A stretch of DNA of 64,000 nt. It comes from a virus. The notes under the pieces are model-generated. The model had not been told where the DNA came from and made no database searches. It saw only the letters and a program-made list of their open reading frames with translations. The position numbers and the translations under genes were made by a program. Where the stretch lies: positions 15,472-79,471 of the IMG/VR virus record IMGVR_UViG_3300021197_001584. The stretch is one strand, 5' to 3'. Of this stretch, positions 4,142 through 62,314 are shown one piece after another (positions within the stretch are counted from its first letter, which is position 1; the number at the start of each line of letters is the position of its first letter).

Positions 4142-4170
4142 GATTGTCTCCTCTCTTTAGGACTAACTAG

Positions 4171-4365
4171 TTATTGCTTCTTCTTCTTAAGGTTTGCTCT
4201 CCATTTTTTGCGAGCAAGACGCTTCTTTTCGGACTTCGAAGTGAAGTGTTTGTTGTCTCGGATTTCTTGCATGATTCCGAGCTTTTTGCATTTCTTTGTG
4301 AAACGCTTGATAAATCTTTCCATGTTCTCGCCTTTGCGAGGCTTGTCTTTAAAATTGGTAGCCAT
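4171..4365 (-). CDS. rpsU: Phage-encoded 30S ribosomal protein bS21
   Basis: 64 aa basic protein: GENMERFIKRFTKKCKKLGIMQEIRDNKHFTSKSEKKR matches the bS21 pattern; start moved to ATG 4365. Confidence 0.85.
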   Translation of the reverse strand: MATNFKDKPRKGENMERFIKRFTKKCKKLGIMQEIRDNKHFTSKSEKKRLARKKWRANLKKKKQ

Positions 4366-4367
4366 TG

Positions 4368-4793
4368 TTATCCCTTTGCTAATTTTGACCATAGAGCCGA
4401 AGATGTTCCGAAAGCTGACAAGTCAACGCCGGGATCATTTGGTGCAACGCCATCAAGAGCTTTCGCTCCTTGTGGTGATGTTGCTGATCTCCCGCTATCT
4501 CTGCTAGACAAAGGCGTTGTTCCTTCGAACAAGTCGACTCCGTTAAAAGAGTCTCTACCAATTGAGTCAAGCATTTTGCGACGTTGTTCTTTACGCTTCC
4601 GCTCTTGGGCTTCGTAATCGATTTGTGGTTTTTGATAAGTTGGTTGTGCTTGAGTCTCGACGATACGCTGACCACCAGTCCCTTTCACAACCTCTGAAAT
4701 AATTCCGGAGAGAACTCCTTCTTCAAAGATTACTTCTTTTATGCACTCTTTTATGAGTGGCTTTAAAGTTTTTCTTAATTGTTCTTTGTTCAT
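4368..4793 (-). CDS. Hypothetical head-associated protein
   Basis: 141 aa; N-terminus LRKTLKPLIKECIKEV resembles the MKLTK...IIKEEL leader; lies between protease and rpsU. Confidence 0.6.
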   Translation of the reverse strand: MNKEQLRKTLKPLIKECIKEVIFEEGVLSGIISEVVKGTGGQRIVETQAQPTYQKPQIDYEAQERKRKEQRRKMLDSIGRDSFNGVDLFEGTTPLSSRDSGRSATSPQGAKALDGVAPNDPGVDLSAFGTSSALWSKLAKG

Positions 4794-5417
4794 TTAGTCT
4801 CCAAGAATCTTCTTAAATAGATTGTCAATGTTATTTTCTTTTTGTTCTCGCAACTTTGTTGAGAAACGAGATGGCTTATTAGGGCCTCCTTTCGGATAAA
4901 CATAGGCATCTGGCGTTGACGGTTCTGACACAATGTCAAAGCAGATAAGTTGGAAATCTTCTTGAACAACGGTCTGTCCTCTTGACTCTGATACGGATCC
5001 AAGTCCACGAGATGAAATTCCAAGTTTCACACCAGCATTGATGAGGTCCTTTAGAATTCTACCGCTAGGAGTGTCGAGGATCTTGATCTTGCCCATTACA
5101 TCTCTTCCCTCCCACCAACACTCTGTGACGATGTGAGAAACGTTTTTAAGGTTAATTACGGAGTCGTCAGGGTGATCTAATTCACCTGTCGCTCTGTTAT
5201 CCTTGATAATTTTTTGATAGTTTTCGATTTCACGTTTGAGGACTTTGTCTGGATACACACGACCATTACCGTTTTGCTTCTCGGCAGTTTGGATGCGACC
5301 AGTTAAGTACATCGCACCATTGTCTGTGATGTCTCTCTTTTCTCTTTCGGTAAGCAAGTCTTGACACATTCCATCTGGACATAGTGCATGAAATTCTCTT
5401 AGCAATTTTTTTGACAT
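4794..5417 (-). CDS. Prohead maturation protease (T4 gp21-like)
   Basis: NGNGRVYP, GELDHP, LGISSRGLGS, FDIVSEPS motifs; start at ATG 5417 after GGAG. Confidence 0.92.
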   Translation of the reverse strand: MSKKLLREFHALCPDGMCQDLLTEREKRDITDNGAMYLTGRIQTAEKQNGNGRVYPDKVLKREIENYQKIIKDNRATGELDHPDDSVINLKNVSHIVTECWWEGRDVMGKIKILDTPSGRILKDLINAGVKLGISSRGLGSVSESRGQTVVQEDFQLICFDIVSEPSTPDAYVYPKGGPNKPSRFSTKLREQKENNIDNLFKKILGD

Positions 5418-5430
5418 TTCTTTCTCCAAT

Positions 5431-5868: not shown

Positions 5869-6504
5869 TTAGTAAGTGTAGCGGCCGTAGAGATAGGGAG
5901 CAAACAAGTTTCGTTGACGGATAGATCCCTTTTGATCTTCATGAGGGACCTCGCCAAGCTCTGTTGAGTATTCTCCATCAGGATTGACCATGTGCTTCTC
6001 TACGTCTTCATCGTGACCCTTGAGTCGCTTGACGTAAGGCTCTTCGTCCTTCATCCATTCGTGAATTGCTAGCAACGTAATCTTGTTTACATCGTGCTCT
6101 TTGGCATCCATGAGTTTGCCTTCCATGGATCCATAGATGTTCCCGCCTTGAATTGAGTCAAATTCGAGTACACCTTTCTTTCTTAGAAACTCAAACAATC
6201 TAGATTCAGCACCATAGACGAAGTCTGAATTCATTTCTTTGGCAAATGCCGTGACCTTTCGGTCTTTCTGATTGAGTACGATATCGATGTCTCTGTGAGC
6301 GAAGATCATGAGGTCTCCATTAACTGCTGATTTTGCTTGAAGTTCGAACTCAATACGTTCTTTGTCTAGGATCTCGATCTTCACAGTTGGTTCCTGAGGT
6401 TCTTCCGGTCGATCAACTTGCTTGATTTTAATCTTTATGTTTGAACCTTCTTCTTCCGCTTCAACGATTGGCTCTTCTCGAGTAACTTTGACTTTAACTG
6501 ACAT
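5869..6504 (-). CDS. Hypothetical protein, head morphogenesis cluster
   Basis: 211 aa ORF in the portal-protease cluster. Confidence 0.6.
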   Translation of the reverse strand: MSVKVKVTREEPIVEAEEEGSNIKIKIKQVDRPEEPQEPTVKIEILDKERIEFELQAKSAVNGDLMIFAHRDIDIVLNQKDRKVTAFAKEMNSDFVYGAESRLFEFLRKKGVLEFDSIQGGNIYGSMEGKLMDAKEHDVNKITLLAIHEWMKDEEPYVKRLKGHDEDVEKHMVNPDGEYSTELGEVPHEDQKGSIRQRNLFAPYLYGRYTY

Positions 6505-7309
6505 TGCGCTTTACCTCCGCTAAAAGGTCTTGAATGTAAAATATCTCTTCGACTACGGCCTCATTTAAAGGCTGAGATGCGTAGTTGTCCAGCTTTGCCT
6601 TAACTTTTTTAAAATTTTCATTTAAGGCACTATTACGTCCTTCTACAATCTCGGCGCTTACGGCTTCTTTGAGACGTCCGATTTCCGAATTTAGATAAGA
6701 CTTAAGTCCCAATCCATTATCGGAAAATGATGTAATAAAGTTTGTCAAAAGCTCTTTCTGCTCTGTTAACAAAGAATGTTCATAAGTGTCGTTAAATCTG
6801 TTAACGAACATTTTGAATTCTAACTTGTCGAGATGTTTCATTTCTGTTAAAACCTTTTCTGATCTACAAAGGTATCTCACACAATTGTCTTCAAGCATTA
6901 TGCGCTTCTTTGCAGAGAGATTGTCTTGTTGCAAGAACAAGCCTACTGTTGCAAGGTCTTTGTAGTTTGGAACGAAGATCCCAAATGAGTCAGAACCCAG
7001 TGCTTTATTGATTCTGTTAATGAGCTTTGTTTGCTCATTGAACACTTCTCTTCGATCTATGGAATCAAAGTCCTTCTTTGTTTCAGCCAATAGACGGCGT
7101 GAGTAATTAGCTTTCAAATCCTTTGACTCAAGAAGAGATCGATAGATCTCAAGTTCACGAGCTAGTGTTGTTCCTTTTGTAAAGAACTCTTTTAGGATTG
7201 CTTTTACGATTTGCTGCTCTTGTTTGTTTTCGCGAATGACAGACTTTGTCAATGAGCGAACAAGGCATTCGTAAAGAAAAGCGGTATTTCTTTTCTTATT
7301 GTGTTTCAT
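6494..7309 (-). CDS. Hypothetical protein next to portal (possible prohead core/scaffold)
   Basis: 271 aa, helical, immediately downstream of the portal; function inferred from position only. Confidence 0.55.
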   Translation of the reverse strand: MKHNKKRNTAFLYECLVRSLTKSVIRENKQEQQIVKAILKEFFTKGTTLARELEIYRSLLESKDLKANYSRRLLAETKKDFDSIDRREVFNEQTKLINRINKALGSDSFGIFVPNYKDLATVGLFLQQDNLSAKKRIMLEDNCVRYLCRSEKVLTEMKHLDKLEFKMFVNRFNDTYEHSLLTEQKELLTNFITSFSDNGLGLKSYLNSEIGRLKEAVSAEIVEGRNSALNENFKKVKAKLDNYASQPLNEAVVEEIFYIQDLLAEVKRNVS

Positions 7310-9188
7310 CCTGATCTCCTTTCATGGTTAGTGATTCTAATAGTGTTCTAATTTCAGCTTCAGATTTAAATAGTTGGCTTTCTTCGAAATCGGTAGATTC
7401 TGTTACACCTCGAGCTAATGAGTCTAAACCACCAAATCCGACTTTGCCGGGAAAGGTCTTGCGAGCAGTTCCGATCTCACCAGAAGCAGTGTTGTTCATT
7501 TGTTTTTTCATTCCACCTTTTCTATAAGTCAACTTGTGCCGCTTGTAAGGTCCTCGGGGTTTTGCATCATCATCACGCTTTGCTGGAGGTTCTGCCATTA
7601 GATCGGGTTCGCCACCAGAATCACCACCAGCGTCATCGCCAGCGTCATCGCTTCCTGTATCTAAGTCCCCACCTAAATCATCCCCGCCTAGGTCGAGGTC
7701 TCCACCTCCACCGCCAGAGTCACCGCCGCCTTCATCTCCTTGACCAGCCCCTTCGAGAGCGTTCATGAACTTCTTATCGCTAAACATTTCACGTTGCATT
7801 CGCAAGTATTCTTCTTGTGACAAACCGAGTAAGTTTTCAGAAACCCAACGACGAGAGAAGTAGCCTTCTGTTGCTGCTCCTGCAATGTCAAACTTTGTCT
7901 TCCAATGTTCGAGTTCTTGCATCTCGGCAATCTTTGATGGATTATTAAGACGAAGCTTGAAGTTCAACAGATCATCATCGCGATATCCCATTGTGTAAAG
8001 ATGAACAATTCCAACTTTCTCAAGTTCCGAAATGAGAACTCGTTGAAGTCTCTGAATGGTTCTTGCGAATCGGATGTCCTTTTGAGCAAGAGTTGTCTTG
8101 TCTTCAGTTGCTCCTTCACCCATCGATAGATATGATTGTGGAACTTTGAGAGCAGAAAATAGTTTGTCTCGAAGATATTTGACATCTTCGATCTGTGCTG
8201 TAAATTGTCCTCCAGGAAGGTTCTCAATGTTCGTAGAGGACTGTCCGCCTCTAACTGGGATAAAGTAGTCCTCTTCAATCGAAAGTGGGTTGTAGCGTAA
8301 ATCTACGCGACCTGTGGTTGGGTCAACAACTTGGTGACGCTTCATCTGAGTCATGACTTTTTGCATGTATTGTTCAACGTCTTGAGGTGCGATTCCACCA
8401 ACGTCAATCTTGAAAACACGACGCTCTGGTGAGCGAGTGATTCTGTAAGCCATCATGGCATCTTCCAATAGCGTAAGTTGTCTCCAGATCCGTCTAGCGG
8501 GCTCTAGGACGCTTGTTCCGTAAGGAGCATGTTTGTCATTACCTAACACTCTAAAGTGCGCTATTTGCCAATTTTCGAGCGTTAAAGAGGCATTGTTCCA
8601 TTGGTATTGAACATAGTTGGGATTTGTTGGATCCTCGCCTTCAAGTCTCTCGACTTCTTGAGGAGGAAGTCCGATGCAGTTTTGGATTCCTTTGCTCTCG
8701 TCAATGTCGAGATAGACAAATAGGTCTCCGTACTTACACATGGTTCTCGCCCAGCCGAAGAGGTTGTGTTCAACATTCATGATGTTGTAGTAAAGATTGT
8801 GCAAAATGTATTTGATTTCATCATTTGTGCAATTGATGTGGAGCATTGGAGTCAATGCTGAGTGAGTTGTCATCTCGTCTGCGTAAATGTCGAGAGAAGA
8901 TGCAATCTCTGGTGTAAATTCCATTTGGTCGAAATCGATGTAACGCTCTGCTCGGTTTCTGTTCGAGATCATGTTGAGCGTCATGATGTTCATTGGGTTG
9001 TATTCGGTCTTCTTGAACTGCTGACCTGATGCGGACTTGAAACGCTTTGCGTAAATATCCAAGTGGCGTCGTCGGAGTTGTCGTCCTGATTGTGTTCGTC
9101 GTTGGGTCAGAGGCCCCGAGAACATTCTAGTTAAAGCTTTGAATAAATCGTTTTGATTGTTATTCGGGTTTCTTTCGTTGCGAGCCAT
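7296..9188 (-). CDS. Portal protein (T4 gp20-like)
   Basis: LLEDAMMAYRITRSPERRVFKIDVG, EEDYFIPVRGG, LPGG, DVKYLRDKLFSALKVP motifs; Gly/Asp-rich C-terminal tail. Confidence 0.95.
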   Translation of the reverse strand: MARNERNPNNNQNDLFKALTRMFSGPLTQRRTQSGRQLRRRHLDIYAKRFKSASGQQFKKTEYNPMNIMTLNMISNRNRAERYIDFDQMEFTPEIASSLDIYADEMTTHSALTPMLHINCTNDEIKYILHNLYYNIMNVEHNLFGWARTMCKYGDLFVYLDIDESKGIQNCIGLPPQEVERLEGEDPTNPNYVQYQWNNASLTLENWQIAHFRVLGNDKHAPYGTSVLEPARRIWRQLTLLEDAMMAYRITRSPERRVFKIDVGGIAPQDVEQYMQKVMTQMKRHQVVDPTTGRVDLRYNPLSIEEDYFIPVRGGQSSTNIENLPGGQFTAQIEDVKYLRDKLFSALKVPQSYLSMGEGATEDKTTLAQKDIRFARTIQRLQRVLISELEKVGIVHLYTMGYRDDDLLNFKLRLNNPSKIAEMQELEHWKTKFDIAGAATEGYFSRRWVSENLLGLSQEEYLRMQREMFSDKKFMNALEGAGQGDEGGGDSGGGGGDLDLGGDDLGGDLDTGSDDAGDDAGGDSGGEPDLMAEPPAKRDDDAKPRGPYKRHKLTYRKGGMKKQMNNTASGEIGTARKTFPGKVGFGGLDSLARGVTESTDFEESQLFKSEAEIRTLLESLTMKGDQDETQ

Positions 9189-9191
9189 TTT

Positions 9192-10769
9192 CTATCCTTT
9201 GTAAATCCAGAGAAATTCTTTTGTCTTCTCTATTTCCTCCCTATGTTTTTCGTTAAACGTTTCGTTATAGAACTTTTGACCTTTGATTTGCGTGTTCATG
9301 GTTGTGGTGCTTTTAAAAACACCTCCAAGCATTGCTTTCTTATATGCCATGTCTCGTTCGTTTTCAGCCAAGGCAGTGTCTCTAACCCAGCAAGCGATTG
9401 CCAAAGACATTACGAGATCATCATTGTAAGAACGCATTGCTTGAGGTTTACCATTGAACCAAATAAAAGTCTTCAATTCGTGAAAAACTCTAGCGGAGTG
9501 CATAGTAATTAGTTTGTTTCTGACGTACTCCTCCAATTTAGCCACGATTAAAGGTCTTGTTTTGGTAGATGTGGTGAAGCCCATGACTGCTCGGTCGTCA
9601 TTCTCAGCAAGGTAGGCTTCGACATATTCGTGAGTTGACTTGATAGAATAGTAAAGTTTTTTATAATTCATATCTTTTAGCTTCTCGAGAACAGCAATTC
9701 CAACACCAACATTTTCAACAACGAGCAAACATGTGCCATACTCTGTTCCTGCATCATAAAGGATCTTTGAGTACATGTCAAGGTCTGGTTTGCCTTGATA
9801 TTCTGCAACAACAGTCATTGTGTCAACGCGGAGGATGTGAAAGCAACTATAGTCAGCTCCGTCACCTCGAGCAACATCGGCCGACAAAAGGTAAGGAACG
9901 CCTTCTTCAAATTTTTCCCAAATCCAAAAGTTACGATCATAGCCCACTCGATATTGTGGATCGCAGACATCGCTATGGATTCTCTGTAGATCCTCGGGAT
10001 TAACAACAGTCTCACCAGAAGCATTGAATGAGCACTCCAACTCCTGTGCGATTTGTCTCTTGGACATGTTGTTTGTCTCTTTGTCGAACCATGCTTGGTC
10101 TCGATCTGGGTGAACATCCCAATGGAGTTTCGTTGGAAAGAAATCGTTGTTCCCTGATTCAGATTCCGTGTAGGTTTTGTGGAACCAGTTTCCAACGCCG
10201 TTAGGGGTGCTTAGAGCGATGCAGCGGCCCCCTGTAGACAAAGTAGGGTAAAGACCCGTCCAAAGCTCGTCGAGGCCGTCAACGAACGCTGCCTCGTCTA
10301 TAATAAGAAGCGACAAAGCTTCCGAACGACCAGCGTCACCTGATGTGGTTCCAGCTTTTACTTGAGAGCCGTTTGTAAGTTCGAATGATTGTTTGTTGTC
10401 CGTTTGGATCTTTGCGATTAGCATCCAAGACGGAAGGTTCTTGAAGATCATCTTGACCTTCTTTACAAGATTTGTTGCTGTGGATAGTTTGGTTGCGATG
10501 ACGAGAACATTCTTTTCTCGGTGAAATAACATAAACCAAGCAACATAGGCAGCCGAGATGGTTGAGATCCCGAGCTGTCTTGCTTTTAAGATTACGTTAA
10601 AACGATAATCGTTAAAGGACTTGAGCATGTCTTTCTGATAGTCATAAGTCTTGAAAGGAATTTGACCATGCATAGGATGCGAGATCTTACAATAATTGTC
10701 AATGAAGTATTGAGGATCCTTTCCGCACTTTACAAGTTCTTTAACGATTTCATTTTTTGTAAGTTTCAT
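9192..10769 (-). CDS. Terminase large subunit (T4 gp17-like)
   Basis: Walker A KARQLGIS, Walker B LIIDEAAF, STPNG motif, nuclease DVARG and DDLVMS. Confidence 0.95.
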   Translation of the reverse strand: MKLTKNEIVKELVKCGKDPQYFIDNYCKISHPMHGQIPFKTYDYQKDMLKSFNDYRFNVILKARQLGISTISAAYVAWFMLFHREKNVLVIATKLSTATNLVKKVKMIFKNLPSWMLIAKIQTDNKQSFELTNGSQVKAGTTSGDAGRSEALSLLIIDEAAFVDGLDELWTGLYPTLSTGGRCIALSTPNGVGNWFHKTYTESESGNNDFFPTKLHWDVHPDRDQAWFDKETNNMSKRQIAQELECSFNASGETVVNPEDLQRIHSDVCDPQYRVGYDRNFWIWEKFEEGVPYLLSADVARGDGADYSCFHILRVDTMTVVAEYQGKPDLDMYSKILYDAGTEYGTCLLVVENVGVGIAVLEKLKDMNYKKLYYSIKSTHEYVEAYLAENDDRAVMGFTTSTKTRPLIVAKLEEYVRNKLITMHSARVFHELKTFIWFNGKPQAMRSYNDDLVMSLAIACWVRDTALAENERDMAYKKAMLGGVFKSTTTMNTQIKGQKFYNETFNEKHREEIEKTKEFLWIYKG

Positions 10770-11305
10770 TTTTGGTGAGTTTTAATTTCGATTCATAACC
10801 GTGCCTCTTTCATCTTGAGACAATCTTAAGATTTCATTAAATTCTTCTCTAATCCTCTTTTTTTCTCTTTGCATCGTTGGTTTACTGCTCCCACTGCAGT
10901 AATGATTGATCTTATTACTGTATAGGCGTAAAATCCCACTCATAATTCTTGCATCGCAGGGGTCGATTTTTTTAGATTCAATGGCATCGAACAAATATTT
11001 TTCTTGTTCATCGGCAGTGGGAAACCTAGATTTCATGTTGAATGCATTCTTGAATGCATTCAAACCTGCTTTTTTTAAATTTTTAGATGTAAGCTCTGGA
11101 TTGTCGTCAAAGGGGTCTAATGGTTGTCCAGATGGACCTAGTGGAATAAATTCGAATGACTCTGGTGCTTGTTGTTGAGGCTCTTCCTTATTCTTTTTTT
11201 TCCCAAAACCGAAGAATCCTTCGTCAAGATCTTGTTCGTTAACAACGGCGTCAAGCTCTTCTTTGATGATTCGTTTTAAAGTTTCTTTTGTAAGTTTCAT
11301 TTTTG
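10755..11305. repeat. Perfect 20-bp direct repeat (10755-10774 and 11286-11305) flanking gene 10782..11300
   Basis: TTTTGTAAGTTTCATTTTTG at both positions (minus strand CAAAAATGAAACTTACAAAA). Confidence 0.9.
10782..11300 (-). CDS. Hypothetical protein with MKLTK leader (candidate internal head protein)
   Basis: Begins MKLTKETLKRIIKEELDAVVNE; ATGA overlap with the upstream gene. Confidence 0.7.
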   Translation of the reverse strand: MKLTKETLKRIIKEELDAVVNEQDLDEGFFGFGKKKNKEEPQQQAPESFEFIPLGPSGQPLDPFDDNPELTSKNLKKAGLNAFKNAFNMKSRFPTADEQEKYLFDAIESKKIDPCDARIMSGILRLYSNKINHYCSGSSKPTMQREKKRIREEFNEILRLSQDERGTVMNRN

Positions 11306-11857
11306 ATTATCTCCAGCCTTAATCTTTTCGTTTTGAGGACGCTTTGCTTTTGCGAACTCTAAAAACTTTTTTGTAATGTCATTAGTGGTATTTTCCGAAG
11401 GCTCCAACATCTCATCCATTTGTAAGCCGCCAATCTTGTAGTGTTGATAGGCTTGAACAAATGTTCGAACGTTTGAGGTTGTCTGAACGATAACCTGTGG
11501 TTCGCCCTTTGCAGTCAAGGAGACAGACTTTCCAGTGATTGCTTTGTATTCTTTTTGTAAGAACTTCTTAACTTCATTAATGGTTCTCATGATTTCATTT
11601 TCAAAACCACTTTCTTTCAAGTCTCGCATCATGACATCTGATTGGTAATTGATGATCATGGAGTTTCCGTAAAACTTTACTTTAAAGCCATCGATGACTC
11701 GCTTGTCGAGCAAAGGGATGCCTTGCTCTCGCATAAGTCCGGTCTTTCGTGCTTTGCCATCATGGGAGTAGTTCTCCATGTGTTGTCCGCCGTCGTATGA
11801 ACCGTTGGCGGCTGCTTGGGAAAGTCCCTGTATGATTTCTAATGTTTCTTTGCTCAT
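11297..11857 (-). CDS. Hypothetical protein
   Basis: 186 aa, SD GAGG. Confidence 0.65.
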   Translation of the reverse strand: MSKETLEIIQGLSQAAANGSYDGGQHMENYSHDGKARKTGLMREQGIPLLDKRVIDGFKVKFYGNSMIINYQSDVMMRDLKESGFENEIMRTINEVKKFLQKEYKAITGKSVSLTAKGEPQVIVQTTSNVRTFVQAYQHYKIGGLQMDEMLEPSENTTNDITKKFLEFAKAKRPQNEKIKAGDNQK

Positions 11858-11873
11858 TTGTTTTTAGCCTCTT

Positions 11874-12185
11874 TTATTGATTCATTTTTTCTTTGATTGC
11901 CGAAACTAATTTCTGCACTTCTGGTGGGAGAGTCTGGATATAATCCGTTGCCATCTCGCTACCCTGGACAAGAATGGTTCCAGGAGAACCATCTTTTGGA
12001 TAATAAGCTATAACATTTGTTCCTCTATCATCTACAACTTTAATTTGGTCACCAAGACCTAGTTTTTCTGCAGCTAATTTGGCAAACTCCATAACGTCTG
12101 CGCCCATGTCTTCTGGTCCTTCCGCCATCACTGCAGCTAATTCTTCTTTGATGATTTGTTTTAATGTTTGCTTTGTAAGTTTCAT
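11874..12185 (-). CDS. Hypothetical protein with MKLTK leader
   Basis: Start reassigned to ATG 12185 (GGAG SD, ATGA overlap): MKLTKQTLKQIIKEELAAVMAE. Confidence 0.7.
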   Translation of the reverse strand: MKLTKQTLKQIIKEELAAVMAEGPEDMGADVMEFAKLAAEKLGLGDQIKVVDDRGTNVIAYYPKDGSPGTILVQGSEMATDYIQTLPPEVQKLVSAIKEKMNQ

Positions 12186-12550
12186 TTGTTTGGTCTCCAG
12201 CCTTTTTTCCATCTTTCTTCTCGGCCTTCTATCCATTGGATGTAACATTTGTAGCAACAATCAAATTTCGTCATGTAAAGATCATCAACGGATTTGAATG
12301 AATAAGTGTTGCAAGTTGGACATGAACGCTCGGATTCTTTATTAAGTAGTTCTTTTGAGATTAAAACTCCATCTAGATCTACCTTTTGAGCCTCGGCTTT
12401 ACCAAGTCTATAGTTGGACTTGAGTTCGTCGAGATACTCTTTTTCTTTCTCGTCATCCCAGTGGGACTTGGGATTGGCTACTGCTTCTTGGCCGTACTTT
12501 TCTGCAATTGCTTTTTCGACCTTTACGGCGTAATTTGGATCTTTGCTCAT
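12182..12550 (-). CDS. Zinc-binding hypothetical protein
   Basis: CPTC...CCYKC motif, 122 aa. Confidence 0.6.
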   Translation of the reverse strand: MSKDPNYAVKVEKAIAEKYGQEAVANPKSHWDDEKEKEYLDELKSNYRLGKAEAQKVDLDGVLISKELLNKESERSCPTCNTYSFKSVDDLYMTKFDCCYKCYIQWIEGREERWKKGWRPNK

Positions 12551-12957
12551 TTAACACTCACTTCTATTTGATTTGCAGCATAGTAAGTCAAAAGAGATGC
12601 TGATGTTCCGAGGACAAAGCCACCGAAGAACACCCAAGTTTGCCTTTTGGTGTTTGAGTTTCTTCTAAGAACCTCGATCTCTTCGTCTTTGATTTCGATC
12701 ATCGCATCGTATTTTGTTTGCAATGCTGTCTTTTCTATATCTAAATAGTCAATTTGACGCTGTTTTTCCGCAAGTTGAAGTGAAAAATCTAAAGCAGCAT
12801 TGATCGTACACTGTTCTTCTGTGAACTCTTTCATGGCTATTATAGATACAACCGCCTCATCATTAAACAGTCTACCGGCAAAAGGTGCAACTTCTCCTTC
12901 AGATAAAGGAGTCATCAACGGGGTTGCAGTTGCGAGTGCAGTCAAAAGCCAAATCAT
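12547..12957 (-). CDS. Exported/membrane coiled-coil protein (possibly spanin-like)
   Basis: Hydrophobic N-terminus, coiled-coil middle, C-terminal TM segment (WVFFGGFVLGTSASLL). Confidence 0.45.
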   Translation of the reverse strand: MIWLLTALATATPLMTPLSEGEVAPFAGRLFNDEAVVSIIAMKEFTEEQCTINAALDFSLQLAEKQRQIDYLDIEKTALQTKYDAMIEIKDEEIEVLRRNSNTKRQTWVFFGGFVLGTSASLLTYYAANQIEVSVK

Positions 12958-13343
12958 TTTAGCCTCGAGATGTTTAACTCTTCCATTAGAATGCGATCAA
13001 TGGCATCCGGGTCTTCCTTGGCTAGCTCAATCAATTCAAGCTTTCGATTTACCGTCTCTCTCTCGAGTTCGGTCTGGGCTTGTCTATGTTGTCTTCTCAA
13101 GGCTGTTCGAGACTGCATGTATTTTTTGTTGGCTCGAGCAAGTCTCAACTTTTCCTCAGCTGAAATCTCTTCGATTACTTCAATTTCTTTTTCTTTTGCT
13201 TTGACGGTTGCTTCTGCGGCTTCGACTTGCTTCTCTTTACTTTTACGTCCGAGAACGAAAACGGTCAATACGACAACACCGGAAGCGATCAGCTCCCACT
13301 TATCCTTAATCCAATCCCACTTATCCTTAATCCAGTTCGACAT
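12954..13343 (-). CDS. Membrane-anchored coiled-coil protein (possible i-spanin)
   Basis: Start ATG 13343 (TAATG overlap); N-terminal TM segment then coiled coil; 20-bp tandem duplication 13294-13334 encodes WIKDKW twice. Confidence 0.45.
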   Translation of the reverse strand: MSNWIKDKWDWIKDKWELIASGVVVLTVFVLGRKSKEKQVEAAEATVKAKEKEIEVIEEISAEEKLRLARANKKYMQSRTALRRQHRQAQTELERETVNRKLELIELAKEDPDAIDRILMEELNISRLK

Positions 13344-13558
13344 TATCCGTGCCTCCATGTTCTTGCGAAGTCAATCGCAGTTTGGCCACCAATATAAGTC
13401 ATGGCAATCATTCCCCATGTTTCGGCATCGAGACCAACGCCCAAATACAAAAGGGCAGTAGCGACAGCGAACACAAGGAGCTTTCGTGAAATTGCCCTCT
13501 CCATTACGCTATCGATAATGCCCTTCTTTTCATTTTTATTCTCATTAGAGTCTTGCAT
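13343..13558 (-). CDS. Holin-like small membrane protein
   Basis: 71 aa, two TM segments, SRKLLV...YIGGQ..ID pattern; AGGAG SD and late motif upstream. Confidence 0.55.
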   Translation of the reverse strand: MQDSNENKNEKKGIIDSVMERAISRKLLVFAVATALLYLGVGLDAETWGMIAMTYIGGQTAIDFARTWRHG

Positions 13559-13597
13559 AGTATTTCTCCTTTGCTTGGCCCTAACTAGTTCTTAACG

Positions 13598-16500
13598 CTA
13601 CAATTTGACTTGTGCATAGCCATCAGTCTTATCTATATCGATTGACATATCGACTATGTCTTTCAATCCTTCTAGGTGAGTAATCAATAGAACAGTCTTG
13701 AATTGTGCTTTGATCATTTGCAACAGTCTCGTGAAGCCTTCCATGTGCTCTGCATCCAACGCTGTGGCTGGTTCATCAAGAACAAATATGTTTGACTTTG
13801 GCAAAGATGAAACAGAAATCAACGCAAGACGAACAGCCATCGATGCAATTGTCTTCTCGGCACCTGAACCCATAGATAAAGGTCGTGGATCATAGTTTGG
13901 ATGCTTCAGATAGACTTCAAGCTTATCTCCATCTTCTGCAAAGAATACTTGGAACTCAACAATTGACGAAAGAACTTTTTGGATCTCATCATTGATTACT
14001 GGGAGCATTGACTTGATAACCTCATAAGAGATTCCATTTGCATGTGTCGCCTTTACAAAGATGTCGTAAGCAATGTAGTCACGTTCGGCAGCAGAGATTT
14101 GATCGATTTTTTCTTTTGCTTCTTCAATAATTCGCTTTGCAGATCCCTTCTCGGACATGAACTCTAGAACTTTTGACTCACAAATTTTGATCTCCGCTGC
14201 TTTTAGTGACACAGTCTTATTGATTGCTTGTAGATCTCGACGCAATGAGGATAGGTTTTCATAGGCCTCGATGTTGTCGTTGTAGTAAGCGATGTCGGCT
14301 TGACGATCATTGATTCTTCGTTCCATTAGAGACACTTTGCCTTCACAATTTTCCCACTGCAAAGACATGTTGCGAACTTCAGATTGTTCTCTCGCAAGAG
14401 TGTCGCGTTGGGCTTCGTAGTCTCGAACAACTGCTTGTGAATAAGTTTCGTTGATCAACGATGCTTTCATCTTTAAATCAAGCATTTGAGAATTAAGAGT
14501 CTCGATAAGTTCACTAACCTCAACGATTGTGACCTTTGCTTCTTCTGCTTTCTTTACAAACTCGTTGTTACTGCAGAATTTGCAGTCAGGATCATACTCG
14601 TGATCATGGAGCATGTCGATCTTGCTTTGCAACCTTTGCTTCTCACGTAAAGCCTTGTCTCTAGACTTGGCCGTCTTTTTGATTTCATCTTTAATAATCT
14701 TGAAAGTATCAAGATCAGATTGAGCAACTACCGACTCCTCAAGCAGAGATGGCAATCTAGCCGTTAAATCTTCGATTCTAGAGCGCTTAGAAGAGATCTC
14801 GGTAGATAACCTATCCATCTCACTAGAGTTCTTTAGAAGAGATTTTTGAGCCTTTGAGAGCGCGTCTTTCAACATATCTATGTCAAGGTCTCTTTGCGAA
14901 GCTGCTTCTACTTGATCTCGAATCAATTGCTGGTCTTCTTTGAGAACTGTCAATCTAGCAGTGTGTTTCTCGCAAAGAGTCTGTTGTGTTTCGATATCCT
15001 CAAGGATCTCTGCAAACTCGGCTTGGGCTCTTGAGAGCTTCTTCTGCCAATCGACTGATGTTAAGTGCTTGATAACTCCTCGCATCTCAGATGAGTCGGT
15101 CTTCGCAAGTTTATGCATTTGGTCGAAGATCTGGAGATCTAGGAACTTTGCAAGGATCTCTTTGCGTTTTGTCGATCCTTCGTTAATGAATCCGAAAGAT
15201 TCATTTTGAGCGGCGAGGGAAGTCATCATGAAGTCTTCAAGCGAACCAAAGACATTTCTAATATTGTCGTCTGTCTTGTTGCGAGTGTCTCCGTTCTTTG
15301 ACTCTGCTCTTGTACCAAGCGTTAGTTTTCGGAAGTTGAGTTCCGTTTTGGCTGAGACGACTTCTCTACCTTTAGACCTTCCGGTTGTTTTTTCGAGGCT
15401 TCGATCAATTTTGTAAACATCATCGCCGACAGCGATCTCGAGTTTACAAGAAGCTTGTTCTTGGTTTTGATTGATGATATGGACATTCTTTCTTTCTCCT
15501 TTTGATGTCGTATTGAAAAGACCAAACAGTGCAGCATCAATAATAGATGATTTACCTGAATAGTTCTTTCCGAAGATTCCAACAAGGCCGTTTAGCCGGC
15601 TGAAATCTAAAGTATTACCTTTTCCGTAATTAAATAGGTGGTCCCAACTCATTTTCTTAATATCCCACACAACATTTCTAGCGATAGGCGAGGATGAATC
15701 TATCTTCTTTAGATAGTCTCGGGACAATTCGACAACACGATCTCGAACGGAATCATCGATTTCTCTGCCTTCCATGAATTCTCTGAGGAACTTTTCTTGG
15801 TTATCAGGGTTTCTCATGTTCAACGACTTTCCGTTCTTCGCAGATGCCACATCGTTTGACAATGTGGAATTGTTCACGAAACTGACAGAATGTGTTGACC
15901 ATTTGACTTGAGCATAGTCACACGCTCTTTTTAATTTTGCCATTGGCAAGTTGTGATTGCACACAAGTCTCAGACGCGAGTTCTTTGGAACATCGGTCAC
16001 AGGTAGTGTCCCATCTTGATTGATGTGGACAGTAATGAATGGTCGAGGCGATTGGAATAATCTCTTATCGATTGAGTGCTTATCTTTCGAGTGAATGTTC
16101 CACATGAGATAACCTTTCAACCTAGATTCTCCAAAGTTCTGTTGGACGGTCGAACCGGCGTACCAAACTCTTTGATTGAGGTCCATTGATTGGATCTTGT
16201 GAATGTCTCCGAGCATTGCATAGTCAAAATCTAAAAAGATTGACATGTCATCCTCTCCGTGATCCAGAGAGAATCCAGAGCCAACCTGAGATCCTCGAAT
16301 AGCACCATGATAAAGAGCGATGTTAATGTCATTGTTGTTCGATGGCATCTGCCAATTGTCTCTATCAAAGACAGACAAGACATTAAATGTCAAACCATCT
16401 TCGGGAGAATATTCTCCTGAGTTCTTCAGCAAAGTAAAGTTCGGATGCTGCATAGCATCTGCAATGGGCGTTACTGCATCTTGTCGATCACCATTCTTTA

Positions 16501-16765
16501 AGTTGCCATCGTGATTACCTAAAATCATAATGGTTGGGGCGATGTCTGCCAGAGACTTGAGAAAGTTTGATGCCATCTCGAAGTACTCGGGAGACAACTG
16601 TGTCTTCGTGTGAGCTAGATCACCGGTGTGAACGATGTAGTCTGGCTGCTCTTGTTTCAAGCTATCGTAAATCTGATTGAAAACGTGGCGATATTCATCA
16701 TGATATTTAAGATTGCGAATGTGTGTGTCACTAATGTGAGCGATGCGGAACATTTTGTTCGACAT
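13598..16765 (-). CDS. Fused SbcD(Mre11)-SbcC(Rad50) nuclease-ATPase (T4 gp47+gp46-like)
   Basis: DTH, GDLAH, GNHD, GDIH phosphoesterase motifs; Walker A GKNYSGKS; Zn hook CKFC in coiled coil; signature SGAE; Walker B VLDEP; ITH. Confidence 0.92.
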   Translation of the reverse strand: MSNKMFRIAHISDTHIRNLKYHDEYRHVFNQIYDSLKQEQPDYIVHTGDLAHTKTQLSPEYFEMASNFLKSLADIAPTIMILGNHDGNLKNGDRQDAVTPIADAMQHPNFTLLKNSGEYSPEDGLTFNVLSVFDRDNWQMPSNNNDINIALYHGAIRGSQVGSGFSLDHGEDDMSIFLDFDYAMLGDIHKIQSMDLNQRVWYAGSTVQQNFGESRLKGYLMWNIHSKDKHSIDKRLFQSPRPFITVHINQDGTLPVTDVPKNSRLRLVCNHNLPMAKLKRACDYAQVKWSTHSVSFVNNSTLSNDVASAKNGKSLNMRNPDNQEKFLREFMEGREIDDSVRDRVVELSRDYLKKIDSSSPIARNVVWDIKKMSWDHLFNYGKGNTLDFSRLNGLVGIFGKNYSGKSSIIDAALFGLFNTTSKGERKNVHIINQNQEQASCKLEIAVGDDVYKIDRSLEKTTGRSKGREVVSAKTELNFRKLTLGTRAESKNGDTRNKTDDNIRNVFGSLEDFMMTSLAAQNESFGFINEGSTKRKEILAKFLDLQIFDQMHKLAKTDSSEMRGVIKHLTSVDWQKKLSRAQAEFAEILEDIETQQTLCEKHTARLTVLKEDQQLIRDQVEAASQRDLDIDMLKDALSKAQKSLLKNSSEMDRLSTEISSKRSRIEDLTARLPSLLEESVVAQSDLDTFKIIKDEIKKTAKSRDKALREKQRLQSKIDMLHDHEYDPDCKFCSNNEFVKKAEEAKVTIVEVSELIETLNSQMLDLKMKASLINETYSQAVVRDYEAQRDTLAREQSEVRNMSLQWENCEGKVSLMERRINDRQADIAYYNDNIEAYENLSSLRRDLQAINKTVSLKAAEIKICESKVLEFMSEKGSAKRIIEEAKEKIDQISAAERDYIAYDIFVKATHANGISYEVIKSMLPVINDEIQKVLSSIVEFQVFFAEDGDKLEVYLKHPNYDPRPLSMGSGAEKTIASMAVRLALISVSSLPKSNIFVLDEPATALDAEHMEGFTRLLQMIKAQFKTVLLITHLEGLKDIVDMSIDIDKTDGYAQVKL

Positions 16766-16789
16766 AAGTCCTCCTGTTTGTTTGGCTAC

Positions 16790-17095
16790 TTATAATGTAA
16801 CATGTTTTGTTTTGAGTGTCAAGTATTTTTCTTCAAATTCATCATAAAAAATTGGACCTCCATCCATGAAAGTCAAGTCAAAAATGTTGTAGTCAAACCA
16901 CTCTAGCGCCATTACAGCATCCCATCCGTAGGCATCTTTTAGACACTGGAGTAACGCGTCAACATTGTAGACCAATCGACTTTCTTTTCTATGAAATTCT
17001 TTTAAAGAGTCCTCGAACACTTCTTTTGGCTCCAAGACCATAAACTCATGACCATCTTCAATGGCATCTTCTATTATTTTATCAGCTAAATTCAT
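16790..17095 (-). CDS. Hypothetical protein
   Basis: 101 aa acidic; AGGAGG SD; own promoter TTGACA-17-TATATT at 17121-17149. Confidence 0.65.
   Translation of the reverse strand: MNLADKIIEDAIEDGHEFMVLEPKEVFEDSLKEFHRKESRLVYNVDALLQCLKDAYGWDAVMALEWFDYNIFDLTFMDGGPIFYDEFEEKYLTLKTKHVTL
16794..16822 (-). promoter_or_regulatory. Sigma70-type early promoter for the sbcDC fusion
   Basis: TTGACA-17 nt (ending TGT)-TACATT, then SD CAGGAGG. Confidence 0.8.
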
Positions 17096-17150
17096 CGTAA
17101 CCTCCTAAAGTTCACATTATAATATAACATGATTTAGGAACGTTGTCAAA

Positions 17151-17357
17151 TCAATTGAGAAGAATTATCATTTCGGATGACACTACAATATCAATTCTTC
17201 CAAACCTAACAGAATACCACTTTATTTCTTTTCCAAAATCTACATCTGGTAAGTTATCGAAAGAGACAATAGACAACACAATACCTATGTTTGGCGTTGT
17301 TTCGCTCTTGAAATCTTCTAAAAACTCAACCAAACTTCCAATTTGAATGTTCTCCAC
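17151..17357 (-). CDS. Small hypothetical protein
   Basis: 68 aa, GTG start after GGAGG; late motif at 17375-17381. Confidence 0.55.
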   Translation of the reverse strand: MENIQIGSLVEFLEDFKSETTPNIGIVLSIVSFDNLPDVDFGKEIKWYSVRFGRIDIVVSSEMIILLN

Positions 17358-17400
17358 ATGAAGCCCTCCACTACTAAATAGTGTCGAGACTAGCGATGAT

Positions 17401-18309
17401 CTACTCGATGTGACCTGTTCCTACAACAGACCATTCAAGTTGGACATCAACATAGCCATTAAGGCCTTCGTATGGAACTCTTTGTTGAGAAAATCTTGTC
17501 ATGTGAATAGCAGTTAATGACCACGTAGGATATGATTGGAAATAAGATCCATCAAACATAAAGTATCCACTGTCATTAGTGGAGCACGACACTACACCAA
17601 GCAGTTGGCTACCGTCGGGAGAATAGGTTGCGATTGTAATGTTAAACAAGTCTTGTCCACCAGAAGGGCCCCACGAAAATTGTGTTCCAAACTTTGAGAC
17701 AACTGCTGCAAAGGCATAGGAGATGTCTACATAGCGCATCTCGTATGGCTCGATAAAGTCGAACCCGTGAATTGAACGAAACTGGAATGATGATCCATCT
17801 TGGAGTTGGACATTCATATTGACATCTCGATCATATTGATATTCTTGAATAAAACCAGTGTAAACGTTCATTCCATTGTTGAAGGCACTAAAGGAGTTCG
17901 GATTTCCAAAGACATTAATTGACTGTCCAACGTTTTGTGTTGAGACTCCGATTTGGACTGGATTTACGTTGTTAGTGCATTGCCCTGCTTGAGGAAACCG
18001 AGTCGGGTGAGTTTCGTTGATTTTGCTATGGAACTTAGAATCAAACTGTATTGTGATCTCTTGGCTAACACCCATGCATGCTTGACATGCAACTTGCTCT
18101 AGATTAAAGTTTGTAAGCCCAACAGTGCCCCCTAAGGGCTCTGAGGACGGCTCGGTTGATGGTTCAACTGTTGGTTCGTTTGCCGGTTCTGAAGATGGTT
18201 CTATCGACGCTGTGTCGACTGTTTGCGTTGCCGTCTCTGTTGATTGGACCTTTTCTGTTGTTCTAATTCCGATGTCTCCACCGCAGGCCAAAAATAAGGC
18301 TAATAGCAT
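17401..18309 (-). CDS. Lipoprotein
   Basis: MLLALFLAC lipobox-like start; EPSS/EPST linker repeats; CxxC; AGGAG SD. Confidence 0.7.
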   Translation of the reverse strand: MLLALFLACGGDIGIRTTEKVQSTETATQTVDTASIEPSSEPANEPTVEPSTEPSSEPLGGTVGLTNFNLEQVACQACMGVSQEITIQFDSKFHSKINETHPTRFPQAGQCTNNVNPVQIGVSTQNVGQSINVFGNPNSFSAFNNGMNVYTGFIQEYQYDRDVNMNVQLQDGSSFQFRSIHGFDFIEPYEMRYVDISYAFAAVVSKFGTQFSWGPSGGQDLFNITIATYSPDGSQLLGVVSCSTNDSGYFMFDGSYFQSYPTWSLTAIHMTRFSQQRVPYEGLNGYVDVQLEWSVVGTGHIE

Positions 18310-18317
18310 GATAACTC

Positions 18318-18527
18318 CTAGTGTTCGATAACAATTATGTAGCCGAGGAACTCTCCTCGCTCATATTCTAGATCGTAGTAGTTCAATAGAGAACAGACAA
18401 GATCTTTCATAGCTTCTGAATTTCCGGTAATGACCTTCATTCTACGTCGCCAATTGCTATTAATAAATAGTTCGAGTTTGCGTTTAGCGTCTCTATGTGT
18501 AGACCCGTGAAGATCAAGTGTCAACAT
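18318..18527 (-). CDS. Stand-alone Smr-domain protein
   Basis: Start reassigned to ATG 18527 (GGAGG SD): LDLHG...KVITG Smr motifs, 69 aa. Confidence 0.7.
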   Translation of the reverse strand: MLTLDLHGSTHRDAKRKLELFINSNWRRRMKVITGNSEAMKDLVCSLLNYYDLEYERGEFLGYIIVIEH

Positions 18528-18541
18528 CGAGCCTCCAAAAT

Positions 18542-18567
18542 AAAAAACCTTGCCGAAGCAAGGTTTT
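18542..18567 (-). terminator. Intrinsic terminator
   Basis: AAAACCTTGC-TTCG-GCAAGGTTTTTT; C(UUCG)G tetraloop. Confidence 0.85.
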
Positions 18568-18586
18568 GTAAGTAATCGATTATGAA

Positions 18587-19042
18587 TTAGTAGTATTCGT
18601 AACCTTGACCCGTGAATGGTCCGCTCATGGTGTAACCCGCTGTCTCTATAGCATATTTTGTCCAATCAAAGGTGTTATCCATCTGAACTGCATCAGTTGT
18701 GCGATTGCCTTCTTGGGCTGTGTGCTCACCGTTCGAGCGCCAATGTAAATCAATAGTTTCCCCTGCAGATGCACTGTCTTCATGGCGATAAGGAATTTGA
18801 AAACTAACTTCCCAAACGGTCTCATCGTAATTGTCATCAATTCTACAATCGTCCATTTTTAATTCACCAATAGAAGCAACTCTTTCTGTAAATTCAGAGC
18901 CTTTTAACTGCATGAATAGTCCATTCGCCCATTCTTGAGCTGCTTGTTTGTGCTCTGGAGGACATTCCTCTTCGTTTTCCATCATTACTCTTTCGAGTTC
19001 TTCTTTGATGATTCTTTTTAATGTTTCTTTTGTAAGTTTCAT
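18587..19042 (-). CDS. Hypothetical protein with MKLTK leader
   Basis: Begins MKLTKETLKRIIKEELERVMME; own late motif, SD and terminator. Confidence 0.7.
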   Translation of the reverse strand: MKLTKETLKRIIKEELERVMMENEEECPPEHKQAAQEWANGLFMQLKGSEFTERVASIGELKMDDCRIDDNYDETVWEVSFQIPYRHEDSASAGETIDLHWRSNGEHTAQEGNRTTDAVQMDNTFDWTKYAIETAGYTMSGPFTGQGYEYY

Positions 19043-19107
19043 TTGTGGACTCCTAAGTCTTTCGTTTGACGATCTTCACTTAAATAGTCACCAAACATCT
19101 ATAATGC

Positions 19108-19133
19108 AAAAAAAACCTCTCCGAAGAGAGGTT
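19108..19133 (-). terminator. Intrinsic terminator after the tRNA
   Basis: AACCTCTC-TTCG-GAGAGGTT followed by a T run. Confidence 0.85.
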
Positions 19134-25482: not shown

Positions 25483-25523
25483 TGTGTTTTCTCCTAATAT
25501 TTCTTCCCTAAATAGCTCTCTTT

Positions 25524-44435: not shown

Positions 44436-45804
44436 TATTTACCACTCTGAATCTATGTTTGAAAGGAAGCTCTTGGTAGCTCTTGGTCATTACATTAAAT
44501 AGAGCTAATTTGATTTCATAAACATAATTAGGCTCCAACATACTAATGTCAAGATCGAAAAAGTTTCCATTTGAATCATAGGAAAGAGTAGTTGAGTCGT
44601 CGGTCAAGTCGTAGTCAAAGATAATTTCATCTGTGACGACTTTTGATATTTTAAATTTGAGGTTGTCATAAACCTTAGAGTCTGGTCTCGACGTTGCCAC
44701 AGTGTGGATATTTGGAGACCAATCCTTCTCGCGGATGTAAAAGTAGAAGCGAGATGTTTGATTAGCATAGTGAACGTCTTGGTTGTTCAGAACGGAAACA
44801 ACAAGGTCGCCAATGCTAGGTATTCCAGAGGGTGCTTGTGTTGTGACCGTAATTGACCCTGTAACGACTTCCGTGCCGTTGTTGGACCAAACGTCATAGA
44901 GAGTGCTAGCAGACGTTGTAGGGTTCACCACGGCCTTATAAACACCTGTTGTTCCTGCAGGTGATGTTGCTGTTTCTGTGGCAATAGGTGATCCTCCTAG
45001 GGTTTCATATAGAGAAACTGTCACTGGTCCAGCTAGATTTGTTAGTGCTCCCCTCAACTCATTGTAGAGATAGATGTCGTTTGACTGACCAGACAAAAAT
45101 GTCTTGCGATGATCTGTTGTTTGAGAATCCCATCTCGCTTCCAACAAAGGCTTCTTGAAGAAATTGCTTGTTCCTCGAGCATAGAACATCTTTGTGTAGT
45201 ATGAGCGAGTCTCTGCGGTTGCAGTGCTTGGGAGTTTAATGATGAGGCCATAGTTACTGGATAGATTATTTAACCAGTCCGACACGAAACTGGTAACATT
45301 TATTACCAGATCCTCATAGCCTTCTTCGAATTCGGCTATTGATGGTGTCCCTGTAAAGTCTCCACCTTCAGTAGTCCAAGCGTTGCCTGCGCCACTTTCA
45401 TTCCAGCTTGAACCTTTGTTATATGTGAGATCCGTGTAGTTCTCCATGTCCATTCCTGTGCCTTCTTCCCATGAGGTAGTTAGCGCAGACACTTCAAGTT
45501 GAAAGTCTCTAGGTAAGGTTCGGCCGTGTTCGGCGTTAAACAATCTGAGATAAAATTCAGTCTTGCTTAGATCTACAATCTCAGCGTCGATGTCTTCTTG
45601 GATTTGTGAGATGTCGAACTCAATAAGAATTCTAGCTTCTTCAGTAGAATAAGCATCGTTCTCATCAAGAACTTGACCATAGATCGAGAAAACCTCAAGA
45701 ATGTCTGATGCTCCCATGTTCGCATCGGTCCCTCTAATTGCAAGGCTCTCTCGGAAAGCATTGGTGATCGTGTTGTCCTTTGTTGCATAGTAACGTTTAA
45801 TCAT
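44425..45804 (-). CDS. Virion/baseplate protein (DNRLRE-like beta domain)
   Basis: DNTI...RILIEFD...LRL...WEEG.G...W...GGD pattern; follows the gp6-like gene. Confidence 0.55.
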   Translation of the reverse strand: MIKRYYATKDNTITNAFRESLAIRGTDANMGASDILEVFSIYGQVLDENDAYSTEEARILIEFDISQIQEDIDAEIVDLSKTEFYLRLFNAEHGRTLPRDFQLEVSALTTSWEEGTGMDMENYTDLTYNKGSSWNESGAGNAWTTEGGDFTGTPSIAEFEEGYEDLVINVTSFVSDWLNNLSSNYGLIIKLPSTATAETRSYYTKMFYARGTSNFFKKPLLEARWDSQTTDHRKTFLSGQSNDIYLYNELRGALTNLAGPVTVSLYETLGGSPIATETATSPAGTTGVYKAVVNPTTSASTLYDVWSNNGTEVVTGSITVTTQAPSGIPSIGDLVVSVLNNQDVHYANQTSRFYFYIREKDWSPNIHTVATSRPDSKVYDNLKFKISKVVTDEIIFDYDLTDDSTTLSYDSNGNFFDLDISMLEPNYVYEIKLALFNVMTKSYQELPFKHRFRVVNNEY

Positions 45805-47603: not shown

Positions 47604-47637
47604 TTAATGGTCCCTCACAAAGACTAAATAGTTTGAC

Positions 47638-62018: not shown

Positions 62019-62314
62019 ACGTTATCTCCGTCAATTTTCTTAAGTTGTAATCTACTATAATGCATCTCTACTCCATCCACCATTACAAGGAAAAATAACA
62101 CATTCTGATGATTTAAAACCGATGGAGAAAGCACCAATCCAACCTTGTTGTCAGCGGTAGAGACAAGATCTCCACCAACCAACGGAGGAATGCTTTTGAG
62201 GAAATCAGGGTGAACCTGAGGGGTTGGGCAGGGATCGACCATGTCGCCCTGACAATCGACAATCAATGGGTTTACCATTGGATCATTCATTACATCATTA
62301 TTAGCCATACTCAT
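62015..62314 (-). CDS. Hypothetical protein
   Basis: 99 aa, coupled to both neighbours by overlaps. Confidence 0.55.
   Translation of the reverse strand: MSMANNDVMNDPMVNPLIVDCQGDMVDPCPTPQVHPDFLKSIPPLVGGDLVSTADNKVGLVLSPSVLNHQNVLFFLVMVDGVEMHYSRLQLKKIDGDNV

Follow-up and report, generated by a model that had tools for sequence, protein, structure and literature searches.

A leader peptide of 22 residues is carried at the N-terminus of three otherwise unrelated small proteins, L1, L2 and L3, of a virus, and we consider it rather probable that this leader is a capsid-targeting propeptide, a longer and unrelated analogue of the capsid targeting sequence (CTS) of phage T4. The DNA analysed is a stretch of 64,000 nucleotides (nt), positions 15,472 to 79,471 of IMG/VR record IMGVR_UViG_3300021197_001584, and is called the window in its full length. 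The virus is an uncultured aquatic T4-like phage. Its record of 79,471 bp is estimated by CheckV to be 44% complete, and the full genome would be near 180 kb because a relative of 127 kb is put at 70% completeness and one of 141 kb at 78%. Every gene of the window is on the minus strand. L1 (10782-11300) codes for 172 amino acids (aa) and its leader, codons 1-22, occupies 11235-11300; L2 (11874-12185, leader 12120-12185) codes for an acidic protein of 103 aa, and L3 (18587-19042, leader 18977-19042), an autonomous cassette, for an acidic protein of 151 aa.

The N-termini read MKLTKETLKRIIKEELDAVVNE in L1, MKLTKQTLKQIIKEELAAVMAE in L2 and MKLTKETLKRIIKEELERVMME in L3, with the common consensus MKLTKxTLKxIIKEEL..h-x-E, h being a hydrophobic residue. 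In a full-length BLASTP comparison only residues 1-24/28 of the three proteins align (E about 1e-8), and the bodies alone give no match at E 100 and a word size of 2. At the nucleotide level the starts form a three-copy family of direct repeats, 70 nt long and 76-81% identical, which begins 4 nt before the ATG. All three leaders end in hydrophobic-x-Glu (V-N-E, M-A-E and M-M-E). An in-frame ATG lies 9 codons upstream of L2 and is the start for some gene callers; the ATG at 12185 has a GGAG Shine-Dalgarno (SD) sequence and an ATGA overlap with the upstream gene. The first-pass annotation of this DNA had claimed that about 22 N-terminal residues, near-identical DNA starts and a terminal hydrophobic-x-Glu are shared by proteins that are not full-length paralogs. 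All of its sequence-level predictions hold, and its interpretation of the leader as a tag for capsid cargo is partly supported by the features described below.

The leader is portable. A degenerate back-translation of its first 15 codons was searched in IMG/VR and found 64 loci, many of them with two or three copies. A profile was built from 38 leaders and then run on these 64 loci; it gave 135 leader open reading frames (ORFs), which together with the three of the window (L1 with E 1.8e-18) come to 105 non-redundant sequences. The bodies of these 105 fall into 66 clusters without BLASTP similarity at E 1e-3, so that the many N-terminal copies on diverse bodies which had been predicted for related genomes do exist. 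Against 1.84 billion representative proteins the same profile matched 3,488 clusters at E<=1e-3, and nearly all of the best 150 matches begin at residue 1. It might be argued that L1, L2 and L3 are ordinary paralogs with bodies diverged past recognition, as all three are small, belong to the same genome, and conservation in the L1 family extends about 20 residues beyond the leader. This is hardly credible when bodies lack similarity even at E 100, when the predicted topologies of two of them differ, when 66 unrelated body clusters stand behind an invariant leader and when homology between relatives ends abruptly at the leader end. Chance was rejected as an explanation of the leader, and so were ordinary paralogy and a repeat acting purely at the DNA level.

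No further leader copy was found in the 79,471-bp record by a regex scan and a profile scan, and further ones are to be expected in the 56% of this phage's genome that the record lacks. One relative, 70% complete, has seven profile matches at E<=1, four of them strong; among its other matches one lies inside a 1579-aa frame and one is apparently a homologue of a 141-aa core gene described later. About a fifth of the top profile matches are proteins with two or three leader copies, a share that is inflated because multi-copy proteins score higher, and some of their internal leaders lack the start Met. Such multi-unit proteins, each unit being a leader plus a body, are P0009, P0011, P0013, P0079, P0095 and P0118, and also those of L067-L069. 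P0079 (634 aa), for which the DNA was inspected through IMG/VR loci, is a true in-frame fusion in an L2-type slot; the others are known from protein sequence alone and could be read-through of recoded stops. The residues E-N-K-M and E-S-K-M before internal leaders look like a translated SD sequence, which suggests that tandem cassettes were fused by loss of a stop codon.

What the bodies do is a different matter. Payload functions such as anti-defence or host takeover had been suggested earlier, and they are unsupported: among 144 representative leader proteins no real Pfam domain was found, the only matches being spurious ones of S_100 on the leader itself. No family was found in Pfam or PHROGs for L1, L2 or L3. 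Cargo sizes correspond to folded domains of 50-270 aa. A full-text literature search for the motif strings gave no relevant paper, and no description of this tag was found in the literature.

The conserved stretch could also be mainly a DNA-level recombination handle combined with a translation-initiation region, the peptide itself being functionless. In its favour, homology breakpoints fall within the leader, a perfect 20-bp repeat links the starts of L1 and of the large terminase gene TerL (window 11286-11305 and 10755-10774; TerL start 10769), the L1 cassette is missing in one relative, and the internal protein (IP) loci of T-even phages likewise shuffle through conserved flanking elements (PMC2839356). 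However, the synonymous changes do not fit with it. Pairwise comparison of 105 distinct leader DNAs gives a synonymous codon difference of 0.319 for codons 1-16 of the leader; the corresponding values for TerL are 0.271 (codons 1-16) and 0.331 (codons 17-216). Since this divergence matches that of TerL, leader DNA is no more conserved than the gene of an ordinary protein under purifying selection, and the leader amino acids are almost invariant despite it. Positions 19, 20 and 22 are kept as residue classes with many codons, and the fusion proteins retain internal copies that have no start codon. The peptide pattern also outlives DNA divergence in other clades: a diverged leader, KLTKSQLKQIVKEELEVVLKE, occurs in a clade whose TerL is 65% identical, and the uncultured phage LR756508.1 (484 kb; TerL 42% identical) has at least 10 small genes with a diverged leader, for example MRLTERRLKKIVKEEIDKVLQE and MRLSERKLRRIVKEEISRVLRE. 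Thus a functionless peptide is quite improbable. As diverged versions persist in clades with diverged TerL, the tag diverges roughly in step with the head genes. These genes, and two S77 matches in a single 576-aa frame, were seen in regions 183655-195720 (L065) and around 219 kb of LR756508.1.

The leader genes occupy a small number of fixed slots in a backbone which is highly conserved among the 64 loci (TerL 87-97% identical). The L2 slot lies between p122, a conserved Cys-rich protein of 122 aa (12182-12550) that forms its upstream border, and p186, a conserved protein of 186 aa (11297-11857) present in 44/64 loci; the L1 slot lies between p186 and TerL. L2 has its ATGA overlap with p122, and L1 has one with p186. 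The L3 slot lies between p294, a 294-aa gene, with a tRNA-Ala, and an Smr-like gene. Further slots are found between the portal gene and a 271-aa protein and between a 180-aa gene and primase, and in distant members the leader gene adjoins the protease gene. In pairwise blastn comparisons homology runs from the upstream core gene through about 44 nt of the leader, breaks, and restarts at the next core gene. For example, window positions 19400-18999 and then 18521-18244 match one relative (L022), and the body between them differs. The 3' border of the cassettes is the next core gene or a terminator, and in another relative (L014) the L1 slot has no cassette. By these alignments the leader is the 5' edge of replaceable cassettes, and it clearly doubles as a recombination edge. 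As exchangeable cassettes occupy few fixed slots, the cargo sets differ between relatives. It should be noted here that the Smr-domain-like ORF beside L3 (18318-18665) is listed from a TTG overlapping L3, and the Met at about 18527, immediately past the L3 terminator, is its probable true start.

Conservation of the leader ends sharply. In the profile-collected set positions 1-16 hold 2.9-4.3 bits each, and from position 23 the information is at most 1.1 bits; the drop at the end of position 22 is from more than 3 bits to less than 1.3 bits. Glu22 is found in 89/105 leaders, as compared to 8.4% Glu in the bodies, V19 in 65/105, and position 20 is L, M, V or I in 96/105. Glu22 together with L/I/V/M/F/A/T at position 20 occurs in 86/105, and nine more have Glu21. 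The pattern-collected set, in which positions 17-22 were unconstrained by the search, gives the same picture. T4 gp21 cleaves on the C-terminal side of a Glu which follows a short motif (PMC9026906), and the end of the leader looks like a cleavage motif of this type, [LMIV]-x-E at positions 20-22. An Asp at P1 reportedly stops processing in T4 and leaves targeting intact.

Structure prediction by AlphaFold2 was carried out for L3 with 5 homologues (mean predicted local distance difference test, pLDDT, 68.8) and for L2 with 6 homologues (mean pLDDT 71.9). In the L3 model a helix (residues 5-22) is followed by a low-confidence hinge (22-24) and a compact alpha+beta body; the L2 model has a helix at 5-21, a hinge at 23-28 with pLDDT<50 and a compact alpha/beta body. 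According to these models the leader would be a helix with a stripe formed by L8, I11/I12, L16 and V19/h20. Fold searches found nothing above noise for L3 (BFVD best E 0.055; wide structure search best Z 6.6) or for L2 (best Z 5.5), and neither body has a convincing BFVD or PDB match. For L1 the ESM Atlas gave no usable lead, and its own model has a pLDDT of 0.51.

One leader on many unrelated substrates is also the architecture of leader-guided modification, as in the logic of ribosomally synthesised and post-translationally modified peptides (RiPPs). The leader could then be the recognition sequence for a modifying enzyme or a chaperone other than the head protease, and the conserved small uncharacterised proteins that flank the slots (p122, p186, p136 and p134) are in keeping with such a role. 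Radical_SAM (PF04055), however, is found in 0/5 leader-bearing records (38-78% complete) as compared to 14/14 control genomes, the cargo consists of folded domains and not of peptides, and the terminal h-x-E suits a protease. There is only a slight chance that this explanation is correct.

A protease of the required type is encoded, as had been claimed. The prohead serine protease (4794-5429) matches Peptidase_S77 (PF03420) with E 2e-33, is 34% identical to T4 gp21, and conserves the positions aligned with T4 His85 and Ser140, which we take to be the catalytic residues of gp21. In the same module are TerL (9192-10769; T4 gp17-like), with the N-terminus MKLTKNEIVKELVK, and the T4 gp20-like portal protein (7296-9188). 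The same record also encodes, upstream of the window, a scaffold-like protein and a capsid protein of the Gp23 family (PF07068, E 5e-74). In the capsid protein L57-R58-E59 directly precedes the part aligned with mature T4 gp23, and as a cleavage-type site this is only suggestive. No BLASTP similarity was found between the neighbouring head proteins and T4 gp67, gp68 or gp22, the sole match being that of the protease to gp21. Every sizeable record that carries the leader encodes an S77 protease.

The context of L1, L2 and L3 appears to be of late type, in agreement with the first-pass annotation. The heptamer CTATTTA occurs 22 times on the coding strand and once on the other, about 8 copies being expected, and 12/22 copies precede a gene start by 24-67 nt, including the copy at the scaffold gene. 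The genes behind it are mostly structural or large, namely the scaffold/capsid operon, a 1345-aa protein, a Baseplate_J-like gene and the 141-aa core protein; sites include 19081-19087, 4814-4820, 25509-25515 and 47625-47631. Because of the genes that follow it, CTATTTA is read as a putative late promoter. In the scaffold/capsid operon the motif is inside the first-called 424-aa ORF, and the true start of the scaffold gene is read as a downstream Met. L3 has its own copy (19081-19087, minus strand) 45 nt upstream of its start, an SD sequence and two terminator-like hairpins on the minus strand, one at 19114-19133, after the tRNA-Ala and ahead of the promoter motif, and the other at 18544-18567, 20 nt past the stop codon; a late motif, an SD sequence and a terminator of L3 had already been described. 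L1 and L2 are translationally coupled through their ATGA overlaps within the terminase-portal operon. A CTATTTA inside p136 (12742-12748, minus strand), 198 nt upstream of p122, is a candidate late promoter for an operon p122-L2-p186-L1-TerL-portal. In other loci, nine cassettes located amid replication genes have CTATTTA 30-45 nt upstream. No sigma-70-like site is present directly upstream of L1, L2 or L3. A sigma-70-like TTGACA-17-TATAAT does precede other genes of the window, for example near 17121-17149 and 58800.

In the preferred reading, proteins bearing the leader would be made late and would attach by their N-terminal helix, residues 5-22, to the scaffold or core of the assembling prohead. 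The T4-gp21-type S77 protease would then cut after L/M/I/V-x-Glu at positions 20-22, and the freed, folded body would stay inside the head and leave with the DNA at infection. What the sequences show is the portability of the leader, the selection on its peptide, the cleavage-type motif and boundary, the plan of helix, hinge and body, the protease, the late-type promoter context and the breakpoints; docking, cleavage, packaging, ejection and any function of the cargo are inferred. Alternatively, the leader might be a helix for partner binding or oligomerisation in the infected cytoplasm, which tethers accessory proteins to one phage or host hub and is neither packaged nor removed. A predicted helix on a flexible hinge would suit such a role, an invariant leader across different cargo is what one common partner would require, and the similar N-termini of TerL and the 141-aa core protein make a common binding partner conceivable. 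The bodies, moreover, are acidic, unlike T4 IPs. Tethering in the cytoplasm leaves unexplained why conservation stops exactly at the Glu with L/M/I/V at P3, why cassettes outside the head operon have a late-type promoter and why the tag is confined to S77-encoding records; we regard it as unlikely, though it deserves to be kept in mind.

Several observations weigh against a capsid-targeting propeptide. That S77 accompanies the leader is uninformative, since this protease is encoded by every T4-like phage. The h-x-E motif is short, and helices rich in K, E and L are common. In hydrophobic moment the leader does not significantly exceed shuffled controls, and because of this an amphipathic docking helix is not claimed. 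The bodies are mostly acidic (43/69 with an isoelectric point below 5.5) and T4 IPs are basic; acidic cargo is not obviously favourable beside densely packed DNA. Some leader genes amid replication genes have no recognisable CTATTTA, and these cassettes are probably co-transcribed with their neighbours. Finally, no cultured phage carrying the leader was found when two leader consensus peptides were searched by tblastn against 50,697 phage records, the only matches being weak ones in the uncultured huge phage LR756508.1, and the leader profile has no match in the nearest cultured phages, Flavobacterium phage immuto and Microcystis phage Mel-JY01.

The CTS of T4 was reportedly described by Mullaney and Black in 1996, and the internal proteins injected by T4 include a specific anti-restriction factor. 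Apart from DNA, the cargo injected by phages has, to our knowledge, been identified in no more than a few model phages. In T4 the CTS of IPI, IPII, IPIII and Alt is removed by gp21 (reviewed in PMC9026906, PMC3012670); the IP propeptides, 10-19 residues long, direct these proteins to the prohead core and are subsequently cleaved off (PMC9026906). Over 30 variants of the IPs are known from T-even phages, in which the IP loci shuffle (PMC2839356). The principle of diverse, exchangeable injected proteins that have only a CTS in common is thus already established for the T-even internal proteins (PMC3012670, PMC9026906, PMC2839356). What is new here is that the tag is longer and of another sequence, that it belongs to a distant uncultured aquatic lineage, the scale of its use, the architecture of slots and the fused multi-leader proteins.

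In T4 as here, small proteins with nothing else in common carry a short N-terminal propeptide that ends in hydrophobic-x-Glu, their genes vary and can be exchanged among close relatives, and a Peptidase_S77 protease is encoded together with a T4-type portal, terminase and capsid protein. T4 ipII and ipIII both start with MKTYQEFIAE, and their DNA is the same over this sequence. The leader agrees with it in no more than the MK at the start and the h-x-E at the end, so that the leader is an analogue and not a homologue of the T4 CTS. The leader has 22 residues instead of 10-19 and is predicted to be a full helix; its cargo is mostly acidic where the T4 IPs are basic, and its cargo clusters are counted in thousands rather than tens. 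Several slots, including the gap between a putative small terminase and TerL, and fused proteins of two and three units also set it apart, and the system described here is known from sequence alone, unlike that of T4.

Other systems offer partial parallels. Cargo-loading peptides of encapsulins are short conserved peptides on diverse cargo that direct loading into an HK97-fold shell. They differ from the leader in being usually C-terminal and uncleaved, the shell has no portal, DNA or ejection, and there is no homology. For phiKZ-like giant phages the cleavage motif is presumably S/A/G-x-E, and the propeptides are, as we understand, long and without a single common tag. The proteins concerned form paralog families, whereas here one invariant tag is placed on unrelated bodies. 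Many head-internal proteins of phiKZ, 201phi2-1 and SPN3US have N-terminal propeptides that are cut after Glu by a T4-related prohead protease, and the inner-body or ejection cargo is ejected into the host (PMC9026906, PMC5694885, PMC10052503). In promoter early stem-loop (PeSL) and IP-locus shuffling of T4-type phages, small accessory genes are swapped between near-identical genomes via short conserved flanks in hyperplastic regions (PMC2839356, PMC4122927). The conserved 5' element of the present cassettes differs in being a coding leader and not a promoter-stem-loop.

More broadly, the leader helix could serve throughout the clade as an address tag, co-evolving with the T4-type head and marking thousands of otherwise unannotatable protein families as packaged and injected cargo in abundant uncultured aquatic T4-like and huge phages, including fused precursors cut by the head protease; we hold this to be somewhat short of an even chance. 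If true, a simple sequence rule would define a very large repertoire of injected effectors, together with a portable loading tag for a non-model lineage. A cargo tag would turn thousands of hypothetical proteins of uncultured aquatic phages into a defined, testable class of candidate effectors of the first minute of infection, and would also show how near-identical genomes exchange such arsenals as cassettes. The tag could in addition act as a loading signal for engineering these capsids.

The possible origin of the leader deserves mention. TerL has the N-terminus given above in 37/37 clade members with a complete TerL start inside the fetched locus, and its MKLTK is considered native because it is present in all of them. 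Taken with the 20-bp repeat, this is compatible with a leader that may derive from, or recombine with, the 5' end of TerL. The 141-aa core protein (4368-4793), encoded directly after the protease and with CTATTTA 27 nt upstream, also has a leader-like N-terminal helix (MNKEQLRKTLKPLIKECIKEVIFE-E). It had been listed as a looser version of the leader; a weak profile match does exist (E 0.0076 among 63 genes, the best non-member match, with V-I-F-E at the aligned position), and the gene is a conserved core gene and not a cassette. Its identity is 70-84% in close relatives and 54% in the more distant L054. It is a candidate core or internal protein, and it may be an ancestor of the leader. As for p186, no family match was found in Pfam or PHROGs; its location and its length, and nothing else, make it a possible small terminase.

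Both of the nearest cultured phages have a TerL about 45% identical to that of the window and the same order of head genes. In immuto (L072, MW353177.1; regions 6154-6912, 16321-16542 and 4150-4620) leader-like N-termini were seen that had escaped the profile: a 252-aa protein has MKKSQLRQIIKEALD, and a 73-aa protein encoded between portal and protease has MKKSQIVKAVQEVLEE. Two adjacent genes of this phage, 10597-11598 and 11598-11897, have a second N-terminal motif in common, NFxLxxFLxENKLTxN. Immuto may serve as a culturable system for studying such tags.

Some other features of the window were observed. A basic bS21-like protein of 73 aa (4171-4392) is encoded in the head module and is kept in relatives, and its positional counterpart in Mel-JY01 is annotated as RpsU. 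At 13598-16765 a single 1055-aa protein fuses an Mre11-like phosphoesterase with a Rad50/SMC-like ATPase and is conserved across the clade; in T4 gp47 and gp46 are separate proteins. A cluster of glycosyltransferase (GT1/GT4, GT2) and sulfotransferase genes occupies the right end of the window (58859-63636), with sigma-70-like promoter sequences ahead of two genes in this region (near 58.8 kb and 63.6 kb). Giant ORFs of 2975 aa and 2262 aa (35508-44435 and 48070-54858) are present in the tail/baseplate region, where they adjoin the Baseplate_J-like gene (45801-47603).

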